The position numbers and the translations under genes were made by a program. 64,000 nucleotides of DNA from a virus (lineage: Duplodnaviria; Caudoviricetes): IMG/VR virus record IMGVR_UViG_3300027759_000044. One strand, written 5' to 3'. Below the pieces are notes generated by a model that made no database searches, was not told the origin of the DNA, and worked only from the letters and a program-made list of their open reading frames with translations. This document shows positions 11,734 through 59,771 of this stretch, in pieces (within the stretch, counting starts at the first letter, position 1; each line of letters opens with the position of its first letter).

Positions 11734-11950
11734 TCCATACCGACTCATAGCAATTAGAACCTGGGGTCTTGATCCTAATAAGGTTCTAGTTGATGATGAG
11801 GACATATTAGTTAATTCCCGTCGTATTATACTAAAGATTGAAACCTCTTTAGATATCAATGAGGACTTAACTGATTATGTTCAGTTGAGATTGTTTCTGG
11901 CCAGAGAAATGGCTATGTCAAAATATAGAGAAATCTATCAACCGGCATAA
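11663..11950 (+). CDS. Hypothetical protein (start uncertain)
   Basis: ORF fills the gap; N-terminal part overlaps the previous gene. Confidence 0.45.
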   Translation: MMPKLLVQHQQKLTIKKPKLLRSNPYRLIAIRTWGLDPNKVLVDDEDILVNSRRIILKIETSLDINEDLTDYVQLRLFLAREMAMSKYREIYQPA

Positions 11951-12016
11951 ATATATATGAAGTTACGGGTTCTTCATAAAAACCTAACTTTTAAACACAC
12001 ACATAGGAGATATAAA

Positions 12017-12289
12017 ATGTTTAACACAGCAACTTACGCCTTTATTGACGGCGTTTCAGACTTTAAAAAGAAATTCGTAGAACAAACAGTTCAACACGAA
12101 GGCATCAAAACAGCAATGAATTCATTCGTTGATGCACAAGCAAAATACACTAAATCAGCCGCAGATGCAGGAATGCAATCTATGATGGCTTTGGGTATGA
12201 TTTTCACAAGCAAAGATTTCTACACAGAAATGGGTGATCAGTTTAAAACAATGGTCCCTGCTTTTAATACAAAGAAAGCTAAAAAGTAA
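12017..12289 (+). CDS. Small helical protein, phasin-like
   Basis: AGGAGA RBS; amphipathic Ala/Lys-rich helices; resemblance only. Confidence 0.4.
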   Translation: MFNTATYAFIDGVSDFKKKFVEQTVQHEGIKTAMNSFVDAQAKYTKSAADAGMQSMMALGMIFTSKDFYTEMGDQFKTMVPAFNTKKAKK

Positions 12290-12290
12290 T

Positions 12291-23063: not shown

Positions 23064-24089
23064 ATGCGTTTATTGTTGATAGCGGTATGTTTTATACTTA
23101 CCGCATGTGCTTCTACCTCTAAATCGGATAATTACATTCGTAGTACTGGTGTAGGCAATACCTACGAAGAAGCAAAAAACAATGCTTTTAAAGAAGCAAT
23201 TGAATACCATTTGGGTGTTGCAATTGCCAGTGAACGTGAATCACATAATGAAAATCTAACAAAGAATCAAATCCTTGCCTACAGTGCAGGTTATGTTGAT
23301 GAATATAAAATTATTTCACAACAACAAATCGGTAATAAAGTACATGTGGTACTAGATGTTAAGCTGTCTTTACTTAGATTAGGTGATAGGATTATGTCTA
23401 AGGGTAAAGATAGCAAAAATCTTGATGGTCCTAAACATGATAGTCAATATAAATCCTTCTTGGAAAATAAACAGAATGGTGATAGAATACTTGATAGCGT
23501 GTTGAATGATTATCCTAAACGAGCGTTTGACATTAAACAAAATGAATATACTATAAAAATTGATTCTAATAGAAATTTAATATTGATTGTTCCGTATGTT
23601 ATGAAGTGGAATGCCAATTATATTAAAGCATTTGATGATACTATTAAATTACTATCTGACGGCACTTTAAATTTACTTGAAGAATTTGTATTGGGAAACG
23701 CAAAAAGGAATAGGGCTAACTTTAACGGATCTGCCTATTTAGACTGGTCCGGATCTGTAAATTTAGGTAAAGGAATTTATTATTTTAAGGACTCTATTAT
23801 ACCAAAAAAATTAGTTCAAGGATTAGAAAAGCCTATGATCAATATGGAAATTAAAGACAATCGTAACCAATTACTGTATAGTAAATGTTTTAAGCACGGT
23901 GAAAATAAATATTATAAATTTGACTATGCTTTTGGTTCAACCGATCTTGAGATTTATCAACGTTCAAGTGAGAATACTCATATCTCCTTGGACATCCATC
24001 AGAATAGTAGTTTGGCACGTATGATGAAAAATTTATTTACAATTGAATTATCCGTCATACCTAAAAAGTTATGTCCACCTACTGAATAA
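23064..24089 (+). CDS. Lipoprotein
   Basis: Lipobox LTAC; G.G.TYEEAK..AF..AIE pattern. Confidence 0.7.
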
Positions 24090-24102
24090 GATAAGTATTA
24101 AT

Positions 24103-25308
24103 ATGTCAACAGAAACAAAATTAAGTCATTGCTCATTCTGCGGTAATCATAAAGATACCGTAAATAAATTAATCGTAGGAGAAGATGTTGCTATTTGTAG
24201 CGATTGTATTGAACTCTGTACACAATTAATGGTGGATGAAAATAACTCATCGGAAGAGGTTATAGAAAAAGACCATCTTAGATATGATCCAGAAACTATT
24301 AAAGATTTTCTAGACCAGCATATCATTGGTCAAATTAATGCTAAAATGGTTCTTAGTGTAGCTATAGCTAATCACTATAAGCGTATTAACAATCCTCCAA
24401 AAGATTTAGAAATTCATAAAGGTAACGTATTACTGATCGGACCAACTGGTTCAGGTAAAACGTTGCTTGCTAAGACAGTAGCAAAATATCTCAAAGTGCC
24501 CTTCATTGTAGCTGATGCTACAAGTTTAACAGAAGCTGGATATGTAGGTGATGACGTTGAATCTATGATTAGTATGCTAGTCAATGCCGCAGGTGGCGAT
24601 CCTAAACTAGCAGAACGTGGTATTGTGTTTGTTGATGAAATTGACAAGATTGCCCGTAAAAGCGAAGGTGCAAGTATTACCCGTGATGTGTCAGGTGAGG
24701 GTGTACAGCAAGCATTATTAAAGATGGTTGAAGGTACAGTTTGTCGTATCCCGGCTGGTGGTGGACGTAAACATCCTAGTGGCGATATGATTGAGGTCAA
24801 TACAAAAGATATTCTATTCATTGCCGGTGGTGCTTTTGTTGGATTAAAAGATATTGTTAACAATAGAATAAATGGAACTAGTATTGGATTTGGTGCTGAA
24901 ATTAAAGACTCCCGCAAAGATGGTGATTTGTCTATGGTTAGTCCAGATGATTTAACACGATTCGGTATGATCCCTGAATTCATTGGACGTTTCACTACTA
25001 CAGTTAATGTAGATAATTTAACCAAAGATGAAATGATTCAGGTCCTGACAAAAGTTAAAAACAACTATATTGACCAATATAAGTATCTATTAAGTTTAGA
25101 TGATATTGAGTTAGATTTTACAGAAGATGCTATTTCTCAATTAGCTGAGAATACGATGAAATTAAAAACCGGTGCTCGTGGCTTACATACAGAGATTGAA
25201 AAGGTTTTAATGCCTCATATGTATAACACTAAGAAGTACCGTGAAAACAACATTAAAAAGATAAATATTAATCAGGAGCAAATTTTACAGCCAAAAGCCG
25301 CAATATGA
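24103..25308 (+). CDS. clpX: ATP-dependent Clp protease ATPase subunit ClpX
   Basis: CSFCG/CSDC zinc finger, [22 protein letters not shown] loop. Confidence 0.97.
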
Positions 25309-25523
25309 TTAGAGGACGCAAAGTTTTAGTTAATGACGGAAATACAGAAAAGGCCCTACGTAAATTCAAAAAAATGATTACGGATTATGGTACTTTACAA
25401 GAAGTCCGTGACCGACAAGAATTTGTGAAACCTACTGTTAAACGCAAACTAGCTAAAAGTCAGGCTAAAAGACGTTGGGACAAATATTTGCGTGAACAAA
25501 CTTTACCTAAAAAGTTGTTTTAA
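25305..25523 (+). CDS. rpsU: Ribosomal protein bS21
   Basis: [27 protein letters not shown]. Confidence 0.9.
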
Positions 25524-25570
25524 TTGCCCTAAATAATATATTTCTTTACACAATCTAGTATAATAAATAC

Positions 25571-25635
25571 TTTTCTATCGATGCCTAACGGGTCTATAGA
25601 AGAAAAAATCTTGCTTTACAAAGGAGAAAACTATG
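25571..25635 (+). promoter_or_regulatory. Structured 5' leader of dnaK with ROSE-like SD-sequestering hairpin
   Basis: CTTGCTT-TACA-AAGGAG pairs with a bulged G; upstream hairpin contains GATGCC..GGGTC; ATAAATA at 25563. Confidence 0.6.
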
Positions 25636-27528
25636 AGCAAAGTAATCGGTATCGACCTAGGTACCACAAATTCATGTGTAGCCGTTATTGAAAACGGAAT
25701 TCCCAAAATAATTGAAAACAGCGAAGGTGCAAGAACTACTCCATCAATCGTTGCCTATGCCAATGATGAGATCCTAGTAGGTGCTAGTGCTAAACGTCAA
25801 TCAGTTACGAACCCAAAAAACACTATCTATGCTGCCAAGCGATTAATTGGACGTAAGTTCACTGAACAAGCCGTTCAAAAAGATATTGACTTGATGCCAT
25901 ATAAAATCGTTAAAAACGAGAATGGTGATGCATGGGTAGAAGTATTAGATAAAAAACTAGCACCCCCTCAAATTAGTGCTGAAGTCTTACGTAAAATGAA
26001 AAAGACTGCCGAGGATTATCTCGGTAAAGAAGTAACACAAGCTGTTATTACTGTACCGGCTTACTTTAACGATAGTCAACGTCAAGCTACTAAAGATGCA
26101 GGACGTATTGCAGGATTAGAAGTACTACGTATTATCAACGAACCTACAGCGGCTGCATTAGCATATGGTGTAGACAAACAAGACAAGAAGGATCGTAAGA
26201 TTGCTGTCTATGACTTGGGTGGTGGTACATTTGACGTATCTATTATTGAATTAGCAGATGTTGAGGGCGAAACTCAAATTGAAGTATTATCAACTAACGG
26301 TGATACATTCTTAGGTGGTGAAGACTTTGACCAACGTATCATGGACTATTTAGTTGACGAGTTTAAGAAAGACAATGCGGTTGATCTTAAGAAAGATATG
26401 CTAGCACTACAGCGTTTAAAAGAAGCGGCTGAGAAGGCTAAGATTGAATTGTCAAGTTCAGCACAAACAGATGTTAACTTACCATATATTACAGCCGATG
26501 CTAATGGTCCTAAACATTTGAATGTTAAGTTAAGTCGTGCTAAATTAGAATCATTAGTTGATGAATTAATTCAACGTAGTATTCAACCATGTAAGCAAGC
26601 AATGACTGATGCAGGTGTTTCTACATCTGATATTGATGAAGTTATTCTTGTTGGTGGTATGACACGTATGCCAAAAGTACAAGAAATTGTTGAATCATTG
26701 TTCGGTAAAGCACCTCGCAAGGATGTTAATCCAGACGAGGCAGTGGCAGCGGGTGCGGCACTTCAAGGTAGTGTATTAGCTGGTGAACGTACAGACGTAT
26801 TGTTACTTGATGTTACCCCATTAAGTTTGGGTATTGAAACATCAGGCGGTGTGTTTACTAAGTTGATTAAGAAGAATACAACTATTCCAACTAAACATTC
26901 ACAAGTGTTTTCAACAGCAGATGACAATCAACCAGCTGTAACTATTAAGGTTGCACAAGGTGAACGTGATTTGTTTACATACAATAAGATATTAGGTGAA
27001 TTTAATTTAGAGGGTATTCCACCTTCAATGCGTGGTGTTCCTCAGATTGAAGTTACCTTAGATATTGATGCTAACGGTATTCTTAATGTAAGTGCCAAAG
27101 ACAAAGGTACAGGCAAAGAGAATAAAATCACTATCAAATCTGATTCTGGATTAACTGAAAAAGAAATTCAACAGATGGTTAATGATGCTGAAGAAAATGC
27201 TGAATCTGATGCTAAACAAGTTAAATTCATTCAAGCAAAAAATAGCGGTGAATCAACCTTGAACAGTTTCCGTAAAGATTATGAAAAATACGGTGACAAA
27301 GTTACATCGGAAGAAAAAGAAAAAGCATCCAATGCTATTGATGCTTTGGAAGTTGCATTAGCTGGAACTGACGTTGAAGAAATTGACAACAAAGTTAAAG
27401 AACTATATGAAGCTATTGGTCCTGTTACTAAGGTTAAATCCGAAGAGGAACAAAAAGCTAAAGAAACATCTGAATCACAAAAGTCTGACGACAATGTGGT
27501 TGATGCAGAGGTTAAGGAATCAACTTAA
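25633..27528 (+). CDS. dnaK: Chaperone DnaK (Hsp70)
   Basis: [37 protein letters not shown]. Confidence 0.99.
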
Positions 27529-27538
27529 CCTAAACAAA

Positions 27539-27600
27539 ATCGGGTGCCGCATTCGGCGGGCCCGATATCGTCATAACTTGCTTATTAGGAGAAAAACATG
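27539..27600 (+). promoter_or_regulatory. Structured 5' leader of hsp20 with ROSE-like hairpin
   Basis: CTTGCT-TATT-AGGAG; upstream hairpin ATCGGGTGCCG..CGGCGGGCCCGAT. Confidence 0.65.
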
Positions 27601-28047
27601 ACAACAAAAACACTAACCCTTCGTGCCATTGATATTCCATCAATTCACAAATTTGGCATCGGATTTGATTCCATGCTAGATAAATTAATGCTAGCCACAG
27701 CCGGGCAAACAAATACTAACTATCCACCTCACAATGTTATTAAAACAGGTGAGGAGACTGTAACCATTGAGATTGCTGTAGCTGGATTTGGTGAGAACGA
27801 TTTAGATATAAAATTAGATAGTAATGCTTTAATTATATCCGGTTCTAAATCACGTGAAGAAATGCTTAACTATGAATATTTACATAGAGGATTGAGTAAT
27901 AGAGATTTTACTCAAACATTCCCTTTAGCTGAACATGTTGAAGTTATACATGCTGAAGTAAAGAACGGGATTCTTTCTGTTTATTTGGAACGTAAAATTC
28001 CAGAAGAAAAGAAGCCGAAATCTATTGCTATTACTTACACTAAGTAA
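27598..28047 (+). CDS. ibpA: Small heat-shock protein (Hsp20/IbpA family)
   Basis: GIGFD, NYPPHNV, IEIAVAGF, YLHRG, NGIL, PEEKKP..I.I. Confidence 0.95.
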   Translation: MTTKTLTLRAIDIPSIHKFGIGFDSMLDKLMLATAGQTNTNYPPHNVIKTGEETVTIEIAVAGFGENDLDIKLDSNALIISGSKSREEMLNYEYLHRGLSNRDFTQTFPLAEHVEVIHAEVKNGILSVYLERKIPEEKKPKSIAITYTK

Positions 28048-28070
28048 TATAATAAATTTTACATAAATAA

Positions 28071-28092
28071 GAGTGCGGGGAAACTCGCACTC
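28071..28092 (+). other. Stable hairpin between a late motif (CATAAATA at 28062) and clpS
   Basis: GAGTGCGGG-GAAA-CTCGCACTC. Confidence 0.7.
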
Positions 28093-28109
28093 ACAACTAA
28101 ATTAACTAT

Positions 28110-28418
28110 ATGGCAAAAACAGAAATTAAAACAATACTTAAACCAAACTTGAGTTTAGTAGAACCCCCATTATTCAAAATCATTTATTTGAATGATGAAG
28201 TAACTAGTATGGAATTTGTTGTGGGTAGTCTAATTGAATATTTCAATTATACCGATGATACAGCATTACATATTACAGAAAATATACACAGTCAAGGTAG
28301 TGCTGTTGTTGCTGTTTTACCCTATGAAATTGCCGAACAAAAAGGCATTGAAGTAACAGTATCAGCACGAAGTCAAGGTTACCCTCTACAGGTTAAAGTA
28401 GAGTCTGAGACTGCTTAA
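28110..28418 (+). CDS. clpS: N-end-rule adaptor ClpS
   Basis: PPLFKIIYLNDEVTSMEFVV, IH..G.AVV..Y..EIAE.K, YPL. Confidence 0.9.
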   Translation: MAKTEIKTILKPNLSLVEPPLFKIIYLNDEVTSMEFVVGSLIEYFNYTDDTALHITENIHSQGSAVVAVLPYEIAEQKGIEVTVSARSQGYPLQVKVESETA

Positions 28419-31203: not shown

Positions 31204-31794
31204 ATGAGTTTAGTCCCAATGGTGTTAGAACAAACAAGTAAAGGTGAACGTAGCTATGACATTTATAGTCGTCTATTACGTGACCGTGTTATCTTGCTTG
31301 AAGGGGAAGTACATGACCAAATGGCAAATCTAATCGTTGCTCAACTGCTATACTTAGAAAGTGAAGGTTTTGAAAGGGATATCAGTCTTTATATCAACAG
31401 CCCGGGCGGCTCTGTAACAGCTGGTATGGCCATCTATGACTGTATTCAATTCATTAAACCCGATGTTCAAACAATCGTTATGGGTCAAGCCTGTTCAATG
31501 GGTTCATTACTAGCACAAGCCGGTGCTAAGGGTAAACGATTTATGTTACCAAATGCTAGACATATGGTACATCAACCGTCAGGGGGCGCACGTGGTCAAG
31601 CCACTGATATGTTAATTCAAGTAGAAGAAATTCTTGCTATGAAGAAAAACCTAACTGAAATCTATGTTAAGCACAACAGCGCAGGTAAGACGTTTGAACA
31701 ACTTACGGCTGATATGGAACGTGATAACTTTATGTCTGCTAAACAAGCACTTGAATATGGATTGATTGATAAAATTATGGAGAAAAGAGATTAA
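31204..31794 (+). CDS. clpP: ClpP protease proteolytic subunit
   Basis: [21 protein letters not shown] (Ser), HQP (His), ERD (Asp). Confidence 0.97.
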
Positions 31795-53256: not shown

Positions 53257-54461
53257 ATTTTAAAATAAACGACCACTGTCTAGTATGTAAACATCCGATA
53301 AGTCATCAATTTTTAGATTTATCTGATCAACCTCTAGCTAATTCTTATCACAAAGGTGAGGATTTAGAGAAGTATCCATTAAGGATGAATGTTTGTACTA
53401 ATTGTTGGCATTCGCAATTAACAGTAAGTGTTGAACCATCCAAGATGTTTGAACATTATTTGTATATTAGTGATACCTCAAAAACACTTACAACATATTT
53501 TGAATGGGTCACTGATTATATATTAGACAAATGTAAGCCAAAAAATGTATTAGAAATTGCGTGTAATAGCGGGTTGTTACTAGAAATGTTCCAACAAAGG
53601 GGAATTGAATCATATGGGGTAGATCCTGCTAAAAATATTAGAGAATTAAGTGAAAAAAGAAATCTTAACGTATTTGTAGATTATTGGGATAAAAGATTTA
53701 GTGAAGAATTAAAGCTTACGGTAGGTAAGTTAGATTTAATTCTTGCATTCCACGTATTACCGCATGTTCAAGATCCTAATGATTTCATTGAGAGTTGTAT
53801 TAATGTATTATCTGATACAGGTACTATTTTCATTCAAACTAGTCAATGTGATATGTTATTGAATAATGAATTTGATGTAATATACCATGAACATTCAAGT
53901 TATTTTACAGGTAAATCTATACAAGAATTAGCACATAGACATAACTTATTTGTGTCTAGTATTATAAAGACTGATATACATAGTAAAAGCTTTTTATTCT
54001 CATTACAAAAGGCCCAATGTGATGAGACTCAACTTAGTGAGTTAATTGATTTTGAAACTCAGCACGGGATTTATAGCCTTGAGAAATATCATTCATTTGC
54101 CCAGATAGCAGAAACTAATAAAAATAAGTTACTAGTTGGATTACAGAAACTTAAAGATGAGGGATATTCTATAATTGGATATGGCGCTGCCGCAAAAGGT
54201 AATACGTTATTGAATTATATTGATTTTAAGTTAGATTATATTATAGATGATAGTTATATGAAATGGGGTTATTTAACTCCTGGTCAAGATATAGAAATAC
54301 ATAGTATTGATTTATTGAAGGACAAGTCTTTTGAAAAGATAGTATTTGTTCCTTTAGCTTGGAATTTTTATAAAGAAATTAAAGAAAGAATTACAAATGT
54401 ACGTGACACCAGTAATGATGTGTTTGTAAAGTATTTCCCTGATTATATGGAAGAAAAATGA
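53253..54461 (+). CDS. NDP-sugar C-methyltransferase (TylCIII/TcaB9-like)
   Basis: CxxC..QPLAN..CxxC zinc site, IYHEH.SYF, GYGAAAKG.TLLN. Confidence 0.9.
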   Translation: MNFKINDHCLVCKHPISHQFLDLSDQPLANSYHKGEDLEKYPLRMNVCTNCWHSQLTVSVEPSKMFEHYLYISDTSKTLTTYFEWVTDYILDKCKPKNVLEIACNSGLLLEMFQQRGIESYGVDPAKNIRELSEKRNLNVFVDYWDKRFSEELKLTVGKLDLILAFHVLPHVQDPNDFIESCINVLSDTGTIFIQTSQCDMLLNNEFDVIYHEHSSYFTGKSIQELAHRHNLFVSSIIKTDIHSKSFLFSLQKAQCDETQLSELIDFETQHGIYSLEKYHSFAQIAETNKNKLLVGLQKLKDEGYSIIGYGAAAKGNTLLNYIDFKLDYIIDDSYMKWGYLTPGQDIEIHSIDLLKDKSFEKIVFVPLAWNFYKEIKERITNVRDTSNDVFVKYFPDYMEEK

Positions 54462-55135
54462 TTAAATTAATTACAGATCATCCTGTTGCCTTAGAAAGTG
54501 ATGACCACATTCACCCTGATGGCATTTATTTAGATAATAATATTAACTATACATTTGTAGAGAATGTAGAAAAATATTTTAATAATACTAAAATAAATAT
54601 GCTTGATTTGGGTTGTGCCGGTGGTGAATTAGTTAGTAGAATGGCTGAACAAGGTCATAACACTGTGGGTTTAGAAGGTTCGGACCATTGTGTAAATGTT
54701 AGAGAAGAGGTAATAAAGCATCATAATACCTCACCATTAGGATTAAAAAATTGGGCCCAATATCACAATAGTAGACTGTTTACATGTGATGTGACTAAGA
54801 AATATCAACTATTATTAAATGATAGTCCAATGAAGTTTGATTTAATAACTTGTTTTGATGTTATGGAGCATTTCCATGAACATGAGTTAGATATGTTTTT
54901 TAAGATGATTCAATATCATTTAAAACCTGAAGGTATATTTGTTGCTAGTATAGCTTTATTTGACCTTATAAAGAATGAGGGAGTTAACTGGCACAAATCA
55001 GTATATCCGAAAGAATGGTGGGTGGAGACAAATTCTAAATATTTAAAAGAAATACCTTATCCGTTTAATATCACTAATAGAGGACAGAATATTCATACTA
55101 GTGGTGTATATGTTTATAGTGGTATGTTAAAGTGA
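54458..55135 (+). CDS. Class I SAM-dependent methyltransferase
   Basis: LDLGCAGG, FDLITCFDVMEH. Confidence 0.88.
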   Translation: MIKLITDHPVALESDDHIHPDGIYLDNNINYTFVENVEKYFNNTKINMLDLGCAGGELVSRMAEQGHNTVGLEGSDHCVNVREEVIKHHNTSPLGLKNWAQYHNSRLFTCDVTKKYQLLLNDSPMKFDLITCFDVMEHFHEHELDMFFKMIQYHLKPEGIFVASIALFDLIKNEGVNWHKSVYPKEWWVETNSKYLKEIPYPFNITNRGQNIHTSGVYVYSGMLK

Positions 55136-57911: not shown

Positions 57912-58234
57912 TAGAAATAACAGAGAATGCTACTATAAAGATAGCGGATATTTTAGCAGAGGAAAACAACCCAAAAGCTAGAATACGTGTGTTTGTTCAA
58001 GGTGGCGGATGTAGTGGAATGCAGTATGGTTTCACTATAGATGAAGAACAAAATGAAGATGATTTTGAGATACCCGCAGGATCATTAAGTATGTTAGTAG
58101 ACAGTATTTCAGCACAATATTTACAGAATGCCAGCATAGATTATGTTGAGGATTTGAACGGATCGCAGTTCAAAATCAGTAATCCCAATGCGGCAACAAC
58201 CTGCGGATGCGGGAGTAGTTTTAGTCCAACCTGA
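57908..58234 (+). CDS. erpA: A-type Fe-S carrier ErpA/IscA
   Basis: [24 protein letters not shown]. Confidence 0.93.
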
Positions 58235-58283
58235 TGATATTACATTTAGTCCTTATTGATAAATACATAATAAGGATTAAATT

Positions 58284-59771
58284 ATGGCAATTTCAGGACT
58301 ACAGACTATACAAGTAGGATTACAGAATGAATCTACGGGTAGTGACAGCCTATATACAGCATTTACTAAAACAAGAGACAACTTTGGTATACTAGCAAAT
58401 ACCGCCAGTCCTTACAATACATTTACCAGTGGGACTGGTATTAATGCTAATGCCAACGCTACCACGAATACTGTAACAATAACAAATATTGGTGTAACTA
58501 GTATTATTGCCGGCAATAATATAACTGTTAGTAGTTCAAACGGAAATGTAACTATATCATCAACTATTAGTAACTCTACTGCTAGCGGTTCTAACACACA
58601 AATTCAATTTAATGATGCGGGAATATTAAGTGGCAATACTAATTTCACTTTCAATAAAACTACTGGGGTTTTTTCAGCATTATATTTGGCAGGAAATGGT
58701 AACGGGTTATCAAATATACAAGGTGCTAATGTTTCCGGTGCGGTAACATACGCAACTACAGCCAATTCAGTAGCAGGTGCTAACGTTTCTGGACAAGTAG
58801 GCAATTCATTAATTGCTGGTACAGTATATACTGCGGCACAACCAAATATTACATCAGTTGGTACATTAACAAGTTTAAGTGTTACCGGTAATATATCCGG
58901 TGGTAATATTAATGTTTCAAATGGTCGTTCAAATGTAACCGGTACTGCTAATACGGTTGGCGGTGGTGCGACAGTTGGGGTAAGTAGTATATTAGCAATT
59001 GATTCAGCATTTGGTAGCAATGACGCAAATGATCCAGCAAGCGCACAAGCAGTACGTGGTCGTGTAACAGGTAGCAATCTAACTAAAACACGTAATTATG
59101 TAGCCGGTGTTACCGGTCAATACTTAGTAACTGGTACTAATGCAAGCGAATTTATTAACACTGGTTTACTTGGTGTTGTAGGGGACCAAACAACTACAGC
59201 AAATGCGGCTGTTGTTGCTTACTTAGACGGTGACGGCGGATTGACTACTGCTGGTTCAGCATATGGTGTCAGTATGAAAAACTCAACTCCTGGCTCAGGA
59301 TTTGATTACGGTCTTGACTTGCAATTCATTAATTTAAATGTAGCGGGAACGACCACTCCATTCAAGCAAGCAGATATTCGTTTTAATAACGGTGTAGAAC
59401 TTGTTGCTAATGTAGCGAACACAATAAGTATAGGCGCTAACCTCACAGTTACAGGCACTACGAGTACTGGTGTATTATCATTAAACAGTAGTGAAGATTT
59501 AGCAGATGCCGCGGCAGTTAATTTATTAGTTACAGCAAGTTATTTTACAACAGTAGCCGCAGAGACTGCAACATTGGCTGCTGGTACAGCAGGACAAATT
59601 AAAACATTTATGATGGTTAGTTCAGGGGGCAACATGGTTATTACTGTGACTAATCCTGGATGGGGAGGTTCAGGTACAATGACATTTAGCAACACCGGCG
59701 ATTCATGTACACTACAATATATAGCAAGCAAGTGGTTTTGTATAGGTAATAATGGTGCAATATTTGCTTAA
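58284..59771 (+). CDS. Baseplate/tail fibre protein
   Basis: N-terminus I.VG..N..TGSD.L.TAF.K..NF resembles T4 gp9/gp10; G/N/T/A-rich repeats. Confidence 0.7.
   Translation: MAISGLQTIQVGLQNESTGSDSLYTAFTKTRDNFGILANTASPYNTFTSGTGINANANATTNTVTITNIGVTSIIAGNNITVSSSNGNVTISSTISNSTASGSNTQIQFNDAGILSGNTNFTFNKTTGVFSALYLAGNGNGLSNIQGANVSGAVTYATTANSVAGANVSGQVGNSLIAGTVYTAAQPNITSVGTLTSLSVTGNISGGNINVSNGRSNVTGTANTVGGGATVGVSSILAIDSAFGSNDANDPASAQAVRGRVTGSNLTKTRNYVAGVTGQYLVTGTNASEFINTGLLGVVGDQTTTANAAVVAYLDGDGGLTTAGSAYGVSMKNSTPGSGFDYGLDLQFINLNVAGTTTPFKQADIRFNNGVELVANVANTISIGANLTVTGTTSTGVLSLNSSEDLADAAAVNLLVTASYFTTVAAETATLAAGTAGQIKTFMMVSSGGNMVITVTNPGWGGSGTMTFSNTGDSCTLQYIASKWFCIGNNGAIFA

Follow-up and report, generated by a model that had tools for sequence, protein, structure and literature searches.

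A conserved two-hairpin ROSE-like RNA element precedes dnaK and hsp20 in a Caudoviricetes phage genome and its relatives

ROSE elements have been described mainly on bacterial small heat-shock genes. Reporter assays, toeprinting and probing have proven the two-hairpin ROSE-like leaders of Pseudomonas ibpA to be RNA thermometers: hairpin II melts and hairpin I stays, and deletion of the bulged G locks the switch shut (Krajewski et al. 2013, PMC3669281). Thermometers have also been reported from phages, namely on lambda cIII, on SPbeta blyA (fourU) and, again as a fourU element, on sigma-70 of gut Caudoviricetes (PMC11182007; PMC10586365), and only three RNA thermometers have been counted in phage genomes, none of the ROSE class (PMC11182007). 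In the literature searched, a ROSE-like element in phages or on dnaK was not found reported. Here, a stretch of 64,000 nucleotides (nt) from a virus of the Caudoviricetes (IMG/VR record IMGVR_UViG_3300027759_000044; the whole stretch, numbered from its first letter, is called the window in the following) is analysed with respect to the leaders of two consecutive chaperone genes, dnaK and hsp20. Both represent a single conserved RNA element that shows the hallmarks of ROSE and is kept in more than 100 related phage loci, and we consider it reasonably probable that both act as phage ROSE-type translational RNA thermometers closest to the short two-hairpin form of Pseudomonas ibpA.

A first-pass annotation, made from the letters of the window, had pointed to the bulged-G hallmark of ROSE on both leaders and to a preceding hairpin with the motif GRUGCC...GGGYC. 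All named features and their coordinates are correct on direct reading. Each leader possesses, opposite the Shine-Dalgarno (SD) sequence, U(U/C)GCU with a bulged G, and further upstream a structural hairpin (hairpin 1; Table 1). Hairpin 1 of dnaK consists of an outer stem, 25571-25578 paired with 25596-25603, and a core of the pairs G25580-C25594, A25581-U25593 and U25582-G25592, the bulged G25583 and the pairs C25584-G25591 and C25585-G25590, with UAAC as loop; GAUGCC..GGGUC is read at 25580-25594. Hairpin 1 of hsp20 has the stem AUCGGG/CCCGAU, the wobble U27545-G27560, the bulged G27546, CCGC/GCGG and the loop AUUCG, with GGUGCC..GGGCC read at 27543-27562. Downstream, hairpin 2 of dnaK in the proposed ROSE register would be formed by C25610-G25626, U25611-A25625, U25612-G25624, the bulged G25613, C25614-G25623, U25615-A25622 and U25616-A25621, with the SD sequence AGGAG at 25622-25626, and hairpin 2 of hsp20 by C27577-G27591, U27578-A27590, U27579-G27589, the bulged G27580, C27581-G27588 and U27582-A27587, with AGGAG at 27587-27591. 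Both hairpins of each leader have an internal motif in common, 5'-U-G-C-3' facing 5'-G-G-3' (a U-G wobble, the bulged G and a C-G pair), and hairpin 1 resembles a stabilised copy of the SD/anti-SD hairpin (25580-25594 versus 25610-25626; 27543-27562 versus 27577-27591).

The bare motif TTGCT..AGGA is not rarer than chance in the whole window (7 observed versus 6.2 expected); the specificity of the element was assessed with covariance models. Nine hsp20 leaders from distant phages served to build model R1; their Hsp20 proteins have 57-68% identity to the window protein, and none of them belongs to the window's own subclass. On the 64-kb window R1 recognizes the hsp20 leader (54.4 bits, E 2e-9) and the dnaK leader (28.4 bits, E 7e-4) as the only significant sites, while model R2, built from twelve dnaK leaders of other phages with the window excluded, recognizes the dnaK leader with 68.9 bits (E 2e-9). 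A third element was not found in the window. Rejected as chance were an R1 match at window 54391-54466 and a minus-strand match in a related locus (L055; E 0.008), both without the motifs, as well as CTTGCTT..AGGGG..ATG at window 31275-31321, which lies inside an open reading frame (ORF) and out of frame.

Relatives present in IMG/VR number at least 302 for Hsp20 and at least 587 for DnaK, of which 80 loci each (160 loci) were used, situated on contigs of up to 525 kb and amounting to approximately 1.2 Mb of searched sequence. With the exception of L055, all model matches in these loci are at the start of dnaK, at the start of hsp20 or just after dnaK. In five phage genomes of 349-525 kb, complete or nearly so, the number of elements per genome is between one and three, and all of them are located at dnaK or hsp20. 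Nearly all leaders of the 160 loci follow one order: a TATA(AT)AAATA box, a hairpin in which the stem varies and the YGCC...GGG core is fixed, and then, past a short linker, CUUGCUU, 3-8 nt, AGGAG, 5-8 nt and AUG. The anti-SD motif is retained in 105 of the 116 non-redundant leaders.

The base-pairing of hairpin 1 is real. Compensatory changes affect 9 of 11 pairs among 61 leaders and 8 of 9 pairs among 91 distinct leaders, in model-guided alignments that are fitted to the model structure, so that these pair counts lean towards that structure. The cells of hairpin 1 are paired to approximately 98%, versus 38-67% when the 3' partners are slid by 1-3 columns, the covariation score is matched by no shuffle, and the compensatory pattern is unchanged when the 59 dnaK leaders are taken alone. 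RNAalifold on a plain MAFFT alignment gave no structure because that alignment was structurally inconsistent, and the model-guided alignments were used instead. Covariation across phage leaders, which the first-pass annotation had named as a check, is thus strong for the hairpin 1 part (8-9 pairs with compensatory changes). Within the core, the R-Y pair switches between A-U and G-C, the next U, paired with G, is sometimes C, and CC-GG pairs come after the bulged G; the core sequence is conserved beyond the needs of pairing. GRUGCC/GGGYC, which had been read as a conserved loop and a potential protein-binding site, is the core of the hairpin 1 stem, where R pairs with Y and covaries, and no evidence for a separate protein-binding site was found, the motif being the hairpin-I core in the Rfam ROSE and ROSE_3 consensus.

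With respect to described families, the hsp20 leader aligns to all 69 model positions of ROSE_3 (RF02523), including both hairpins, with 27.4 bits (E 0.006). This alignment takes in the hairpin 1 core GAUGCC/GGGUC and CU(U/C)GCU facing AGGAG, and in the closest complete relative (G001) both leaders match ROSE_3, with 27.7 and 24.8 bits. The likeness to ROSE suggests that the anti-SD sequence pairs with the SD sequence in both leaders. The rare anti-SD variants UCGCU, UUACU and CUCACUU, which stem from few independent events, touch only the bulged G or the wobble U, which becomes a Watson-Crick C; they thus keep the pairing or fall on the bulge, in line with the ROSE-register model. GTCA adjoins CTTGC in 39 of 52 hsp20 leaders, and the segment of the predicted outer helix of hsp20 shifts with codon 2 (UGACA with UGUCA in L038; AGUC with GACU in the ACU class). 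Matched partners from leader and start region pair better than permuted ones, the observed value being reached in 1 of 300 and 0 of 300 permutations. Nearest-neighbour energies of the SD hairpin are +1.3 kcal/mol at 37 C and about 0 at 25 C for dnaK; for hsp20 they are, at 37 C, +1.5 kcal/mol for the hairpin alone and -0.9 kcal/mol with the outer helix, a form which reaches 0 at 42 C. Both inner SD hairpins have an energy at or below zero only under about 20-25 C.

Several results weigh against the interpretation of the leaders as ROSE-type thermometers. The ROSE_3 score of the hsp20 leader stays below the gathering threshold of 43 bits, nothing in the window is found at the gathering level, and the dnaK leader has no ROSE match among the Rfam models at E up to 10; of the comparison with Rfam ROSE by Infernal, proposed along with the first description, the full-length alignment of the hsp20 leader stands, but neither a match above threshold nor a match for dnaK. 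The loop-side G-C pair present in all Pseudomonas elements (PMC3669281) is missing; the outer C-G pair is present, with only U-A on the loop side. The SD hairpin lacks covariation, as CUUGCU and AGGAG are invariant among 61 leaders except for U-to-C at the wobble, and CUUGCUU and AGGAG are invariant in the 59 dnaK leaders; owing to this invariance, covariation says nothing for or against its pairing. The E. coli ibpA hairpin, with -4.1 kcal/mol at 37 C, is far more stable than the inner hairpins of the phage leaders, ViennaRNA assigns the ROSE register a probability of 0.00-0.07 with little temperature dependence between 5 and 50 C, and the predicted dnaK fold prefers UUGCUUU paired with codons 3-5. 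The validated E. coli ibpA thermometer, subjected to the same partition-function folding, reaches its register with only 0.11-0.17, and its SD sequence does not open between 5 and 45 C. As the program fails on a validated element too, the low probability of the ROSE register counts for little, and the RNAfold temperature series proposed in the first-pass annotation is uninformative.

In the mechanism that we propose, transcription would start just after the T4-late-like ATAAATA box upstream of dnaK, with hsp20 most likely on the same mRNA. The stable hairpin 1 would form first and, without sensing temperature itself, would keep the leader folded. CUUGCUU would pair imperfectly with the SD sequence AGGAG by means of the U-G wobble and the bulged G; on hsp20, the GUCAU:AUGAC helix would additionally close the start codon, and on dnaK UUGCU may pair with codons 2-5 instead. 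In the cold, the weak structure would limit ribosome binding, and upon warming it would melt to allow more chaperone synthesis without the host sigma-32. Pairing of the SD sequence, translational repression and temperature response are proposed by analogy with the bacterial elements, and the weak predicted stems would fit a low set-point for cold-water hosts. More tentatively, T4-like and huge phages of aquatic heterotrophs might carry their own RNA-based heat-shock regulon, in which a single thermometer derived from ROSE, with its melting range near 15-25 C and not 37-42 C, would follow a late promoter and serve dnaK, hsp20 and, in some phages, additional small genes. The output of chaperones in virion assembly would then follow the water temperature independently of host sigma-32, and the dnaK anti-SD sequence would toggle between the SD sequence and the first codons.

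The same RNA structure could, as an alternative, act without being a thermometer, as a constitutive translational attenuator, as a 5' mRNA stabiliser or as an operator for a trans-acting factor such as a RegA-type repressor, the adjacent phage ribosomal protein S21 or a small RNA, which we regard as rather unlikely. The temperature response of the leaders rests on analogy, the inner SD hairpins have hardly any predicted stability even at 20 C, and hairpin 1, with a core conserved beyond the pairing requirement, would form the 5' end of the mRNA, a position in which stem-loops protect transcripts from decay. S21 and clpX moreover adjoin the leaders, and regA neighbours hsp20 in cultured relatives. 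Against a role of this kind, the same core and anti-SD sequence occur in bacterial ROSE elements, which act without any protein (PMC3669281), the element is confined to chaperone genes, as expected of a heat-shock signal, and no candidate binding protein co-occurs strictly among the loci examined.

For dnaK, a second alternative is that UUGCU(UU) pairs with the start of the coding sequence, either AGCAA in codons 2-3 or AAAGUAA in codons 3-5, and not with the SD sequence, in a long-range helix which would loop out the SD sequence and AUG; regulation would then act by way of the start region and not by a ROSE-type SD hairpin. This is the minimum free energy (MFE) structure predicted by RNAfold at 15-37 C, in which the anti-SD sequence is paired elsewhere with a probability of approximately 0.8, versus 0.02-0.03 for the ROSE register; as outlined above for E. 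coli, however, the folding program misplaces a validated element as well. UUGCU:AGCAA is a perfect 5-bp complement, AUGAGCAAA is retained in nearly all dnaK leaders and UUACU occurs together with AGUAA in two loci (L103 and L110), but covariation is not strict, as UCA as codon 2 is found with UUGCU (L081, L101) and UUACU with UCA (L154, L157). The matched partners pair better than in all 300 permutations, a signal that may reflect shared ancestry. The gene hsp20, with a different coding start, uses the same motif at the same distance to the SD sequence. Pairing of the dnaK motif with the coding start in place of the SD sequence is considered unlikely, by a shade more so than a structure without temperature sensing.

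That CTTGCTT is a DNA signal, either a middle-promoter element resembling the T4 MotA box, the core of which is TGCTT, or a sigma-32 -35-like CTTG (some bacterial dnaK leaders show an alphaproteobacterial RpoH -35 element that begins with CTTG), is very improbable, since the motif is located 16-23 nt before ATG and directly before the SD sequence, where a promoter would yield an mRNA without ribosome-binding site, its spacing is fixed to AGGAG and not to any -10 box, it is not enriched in the window (12 observed versus 9.3 expected), and it is always accompanied by the covarying RNA hairpin.

The promoter-like box upstream of dnaK, AATAAATA, agrees with the T4 late-promoter consensus TATAAATA at 7 of 8 bases. 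In T4-type late promoters this octamer is found approximately 6 nt before the transcript start and is read by a gp55-type factor. ATAAATA is located 55-66 nt before ATG in most of the non-redundant leaders carrying it (dnaK 53 of 66, hsp20 37 of 52); hsp20 leaders without the box come after dnaK, as in the window, and the exact consensus is present in many relatives and in the cultured T4-like phages Melnitz and Mosig. At the dnaK box, no sigma-70-type site was called and no CCCCAT-type -10 element was read in the sequence. In the window, hsp20 lacks a separate box and probably shares its transcript with dnaK.

In the window as a whole, KATAAATA is not over-represented (15 observed versus 19 expected), and approximately 12 of the 15 are found in intergenic DNA ahead of a gene of the same orientation. 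Further boxes are located at 1651(-), 6250, 31175(-), 41010(-), 48431(-), 48812, 52331, 57345, 58258 and other positions; situated 12-130 nt upstream of genes, they resemble a general phage promoter motif like the T4 late promoter. The leader at 58222-58306 (ORF 58284-59771), behind a GATAAATA box, has in partition-function folding the most sequestered SD sequence of the 23 window leaders with an SD sequence (probability unpaired 0.00 at 20 C). The genes behind the boxes are mixed and not clearly late (Dam methylase, Fe/Mn superoxide dismutase, epimerase and unknowns), so that 'late' timing is taken only from the likeness to the T4 promoter. The dnaK leader is located behind a phage promoter-like box and not behind a sigma-32 promoter, in agreement with the first-pass annotation, and the late character of this box is putative.

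The window has a G+C content of 35% and no tRNA genes, and a close relative was not found among the GenBank phages searched. A phage-type ATP-dependent ligase and tail-like proteins are among its products, and most ORFs are without family match. The two leaders are part of a proteostasis and translation island at 24043-28418 with clpX, the gene for ribosomal protein S21, dnaK, hsp20 and clpS in that order (Table 1), and an SprT-like gene is found in the neighbourhood. The closest complete relative possesses a second island without dnaK (clpX-like, S21-like, hsp20, clpS-like; L162), and an AAA protein, S21 and hsp20 follow in the same order in Pelagibacter phage Mosig (L195). No terminator was called at hsp20 hairpin 1, which, without a T-run after the stem, is atypical as a terminator.

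Table 1. Genes and leader features of the dnaK-hsp20 region in the window (aa, amino acids)
Feature	Position	Strand	Description and basis
clpX	24043-25308		Neighbour upstream of dnaK
Ribosomal protein S21 gene	25305-25523		Start overlaps clpX stop
Promoter-like box TATAATAAATA	25559-25569	+	Contains ATAAATA (25563-25569); ends 1 nt before the base of hairpin 1
dnaK hairpin 1	25571-25603	+	RNAfold MFE, R1/R2 alignments, compensatory changes in 59 dnaK leaders
dnaK hairpin 2 (proposed ROSE register), CUUGCUUUACAAAGGAG	25610-25626	+	6 nt before ATG at 25633
dnaK	25633-27528	+	631 aa, Hsp70; Pfam HSP70, 859 bits
dnaK codons 2-5, AGCAAAGUAA	25636-25645	+	Alternative partner of leader UUGCUUU (RNAfold MFE)
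hsp20 hairpin 1	27539-27566	+	G+C-rich; RNAfold, ROSE_3 alignment, R1, covariation; 11 nt past dnaK stop
hsp20 outer-helix segment GUCAU	27570-27574	+	Complementary to AUGAC (27598-27602), RNAfold MFE; would close the start codon
hsp20 hairpin 2 (proposed ROSE register), CUUGCUUAUUAGGAG	27577-27591	+	6 nt before ATG at 27598
hsp20	27598-28047	+	149 aa, IbpA-type small heat-shock protein; Pfam HSP20
clpS	28110-28418		Downstream of hsp20

Among cultured T4-like phages, the element is present on hsp20 behind an exact TATAAATA in Methylophilales phage Melnitz (39.6 and 42.7 bits), in Pelagibacter phage Mosig (18-26 bits) and, with a weak match, in phage C48C1; in cyanophage S-CAM1 the motifs are visible by eye (19 bits). 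A collection-wide scan for CTTGCTT..AGGAG..ATG, of which 120 places were sampled, gave approximately 80 places before hsp20-type genes, 3 before dnaK and a few complete leaders before a small unknown protein (L331, 52.6 bits; L246, 32 bits), and the remaining places are without hairpin 1 and look like chance. The small proteins belong to a family of 65-90 aa without Pfam match, which in other phages has a complete leader of box, hairpin 1 and CUUGCUU (L331:4153-4401; L246:2534-2861(-)); the homologue in the window (12018-12290, ATG at 12018; region 11947-12290) has a CATAAATA box and a 5' hairpin, and no anti-SD sequence. The 525-kb relative G001 has two hsp20 genes, the second of which (L162:1501-2009; G001:63994-), 400 kb from the dnaK-hsp20 pair, has its own box and a canonical leader of 80 bits. 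In another relative (L025:3916-3994), an hsp20-like ORF seems to come directly after dnaK without leader or motif, which may be a fusion, an overlap or a misplaced start.

In bacterial sequence, matches of the phage-like element are found only on contigs of metagenome-assembled genomes that are probably phage. The association with dnaK may nevertheless not be strictly phage-specific: of 30 dnaK loci from Alphaproteobacteria, L201 gives a weak match exactly at the start codon and L213 has the motif. Rfam models gave no ROSE match on 13 alphaproteobacterial dnaK loci, and ROSE_3 gave one sub-threshold match on five bacterial genomes with hsp20 relatives. On 41 genomes from the order of a Halopseudomonas genome (G006) ROSE_3 found nothing, but the controls were missed too, the pre-filter being too coarse for a 69-nt RNA. 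Several of the alphaproteobacterial dnaK leaders (L200, L215, L219, L228, L201, L213) have a hairpin of the same GGYGCC...GGGCC core without match to an Rfam family, and in some CCUGCY could pair with a non-canonical SD sequence, AGAGG, around a bulged G, which, if real, would be a compensating change in hairpin 2.

Cumulatively, phage chaperone genes, dnaK among them, widely possess a conserved ROSE-like element, which is located behind a phage promoter-like box. As the Rfam thresholds miss these elements, they go unannotated. Should they sense temperature, phages would control their chaperone supply post-transcriptionally and without the host heat-shock sigma factor, and the weak stems would point to a set-point suited to cold water. 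As the element is present on hsp20 in phages cultured with their hosts (Melnitz with Methylophilales H5P1; Mosig with Pelagibacter HTCC1062), this idea is directly testable.

With the phage thermometers reported so far, the leaders have in common that they are cis-acting 5' structures proposed to control the access of ribosomes to phage genes, whereas the reported elements differ in structural class (alternative structures, fourU) and control other genes, none being ROSE-like and none on a chaperone gene. Classical ROSE (RF00435, on hsp genes of Rhizobiales) and ROSE_2 (RF01832, on enterobacterial ibpA) equally show the pairing of U(U/C)GCU with the SD sequence and the bulged G, E. coli ibpA reading CUCGCUG...CAGGAG, and the first hairpin of the RF00435 consensus also has a bulged G followed by CC:GG. 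These families differ by their 3-4 hairpins and their longer and more stable structure, and the window has no match to either at E up to 10. Closest is ROSE_3 of Pseudomonas ibpA, with which the phage leaders share the restriction to two hairpins, a hairpin I with a GAUGCC...GGGUC core and bulged G, a hairpin II with CU(U/C)GCU facing AGGAG and a bulged G, the start codon a few nucleotides on, and the position ahead of an IbpA-type small heat-shock gene. Unlike in ROSE_3, the proposed hairpin II of the phage leaders, with a stem shorter by 2-3 bp and rich in A-U towards the loop, is far weaker, a TATAAATA-type box takes the place of the sigma-32 promoter, the hsp20 leaders add a predicted GUCAU:AUGAC helix over the start codon, and the element is also present on dnaK and in phage, not bacterial, genomes. 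Being below threshold, without the inner G-C pair and behind a phage box, the phage leaders are classed apart from ROSE_3, as a ROSE-like variant and not as members of that family.

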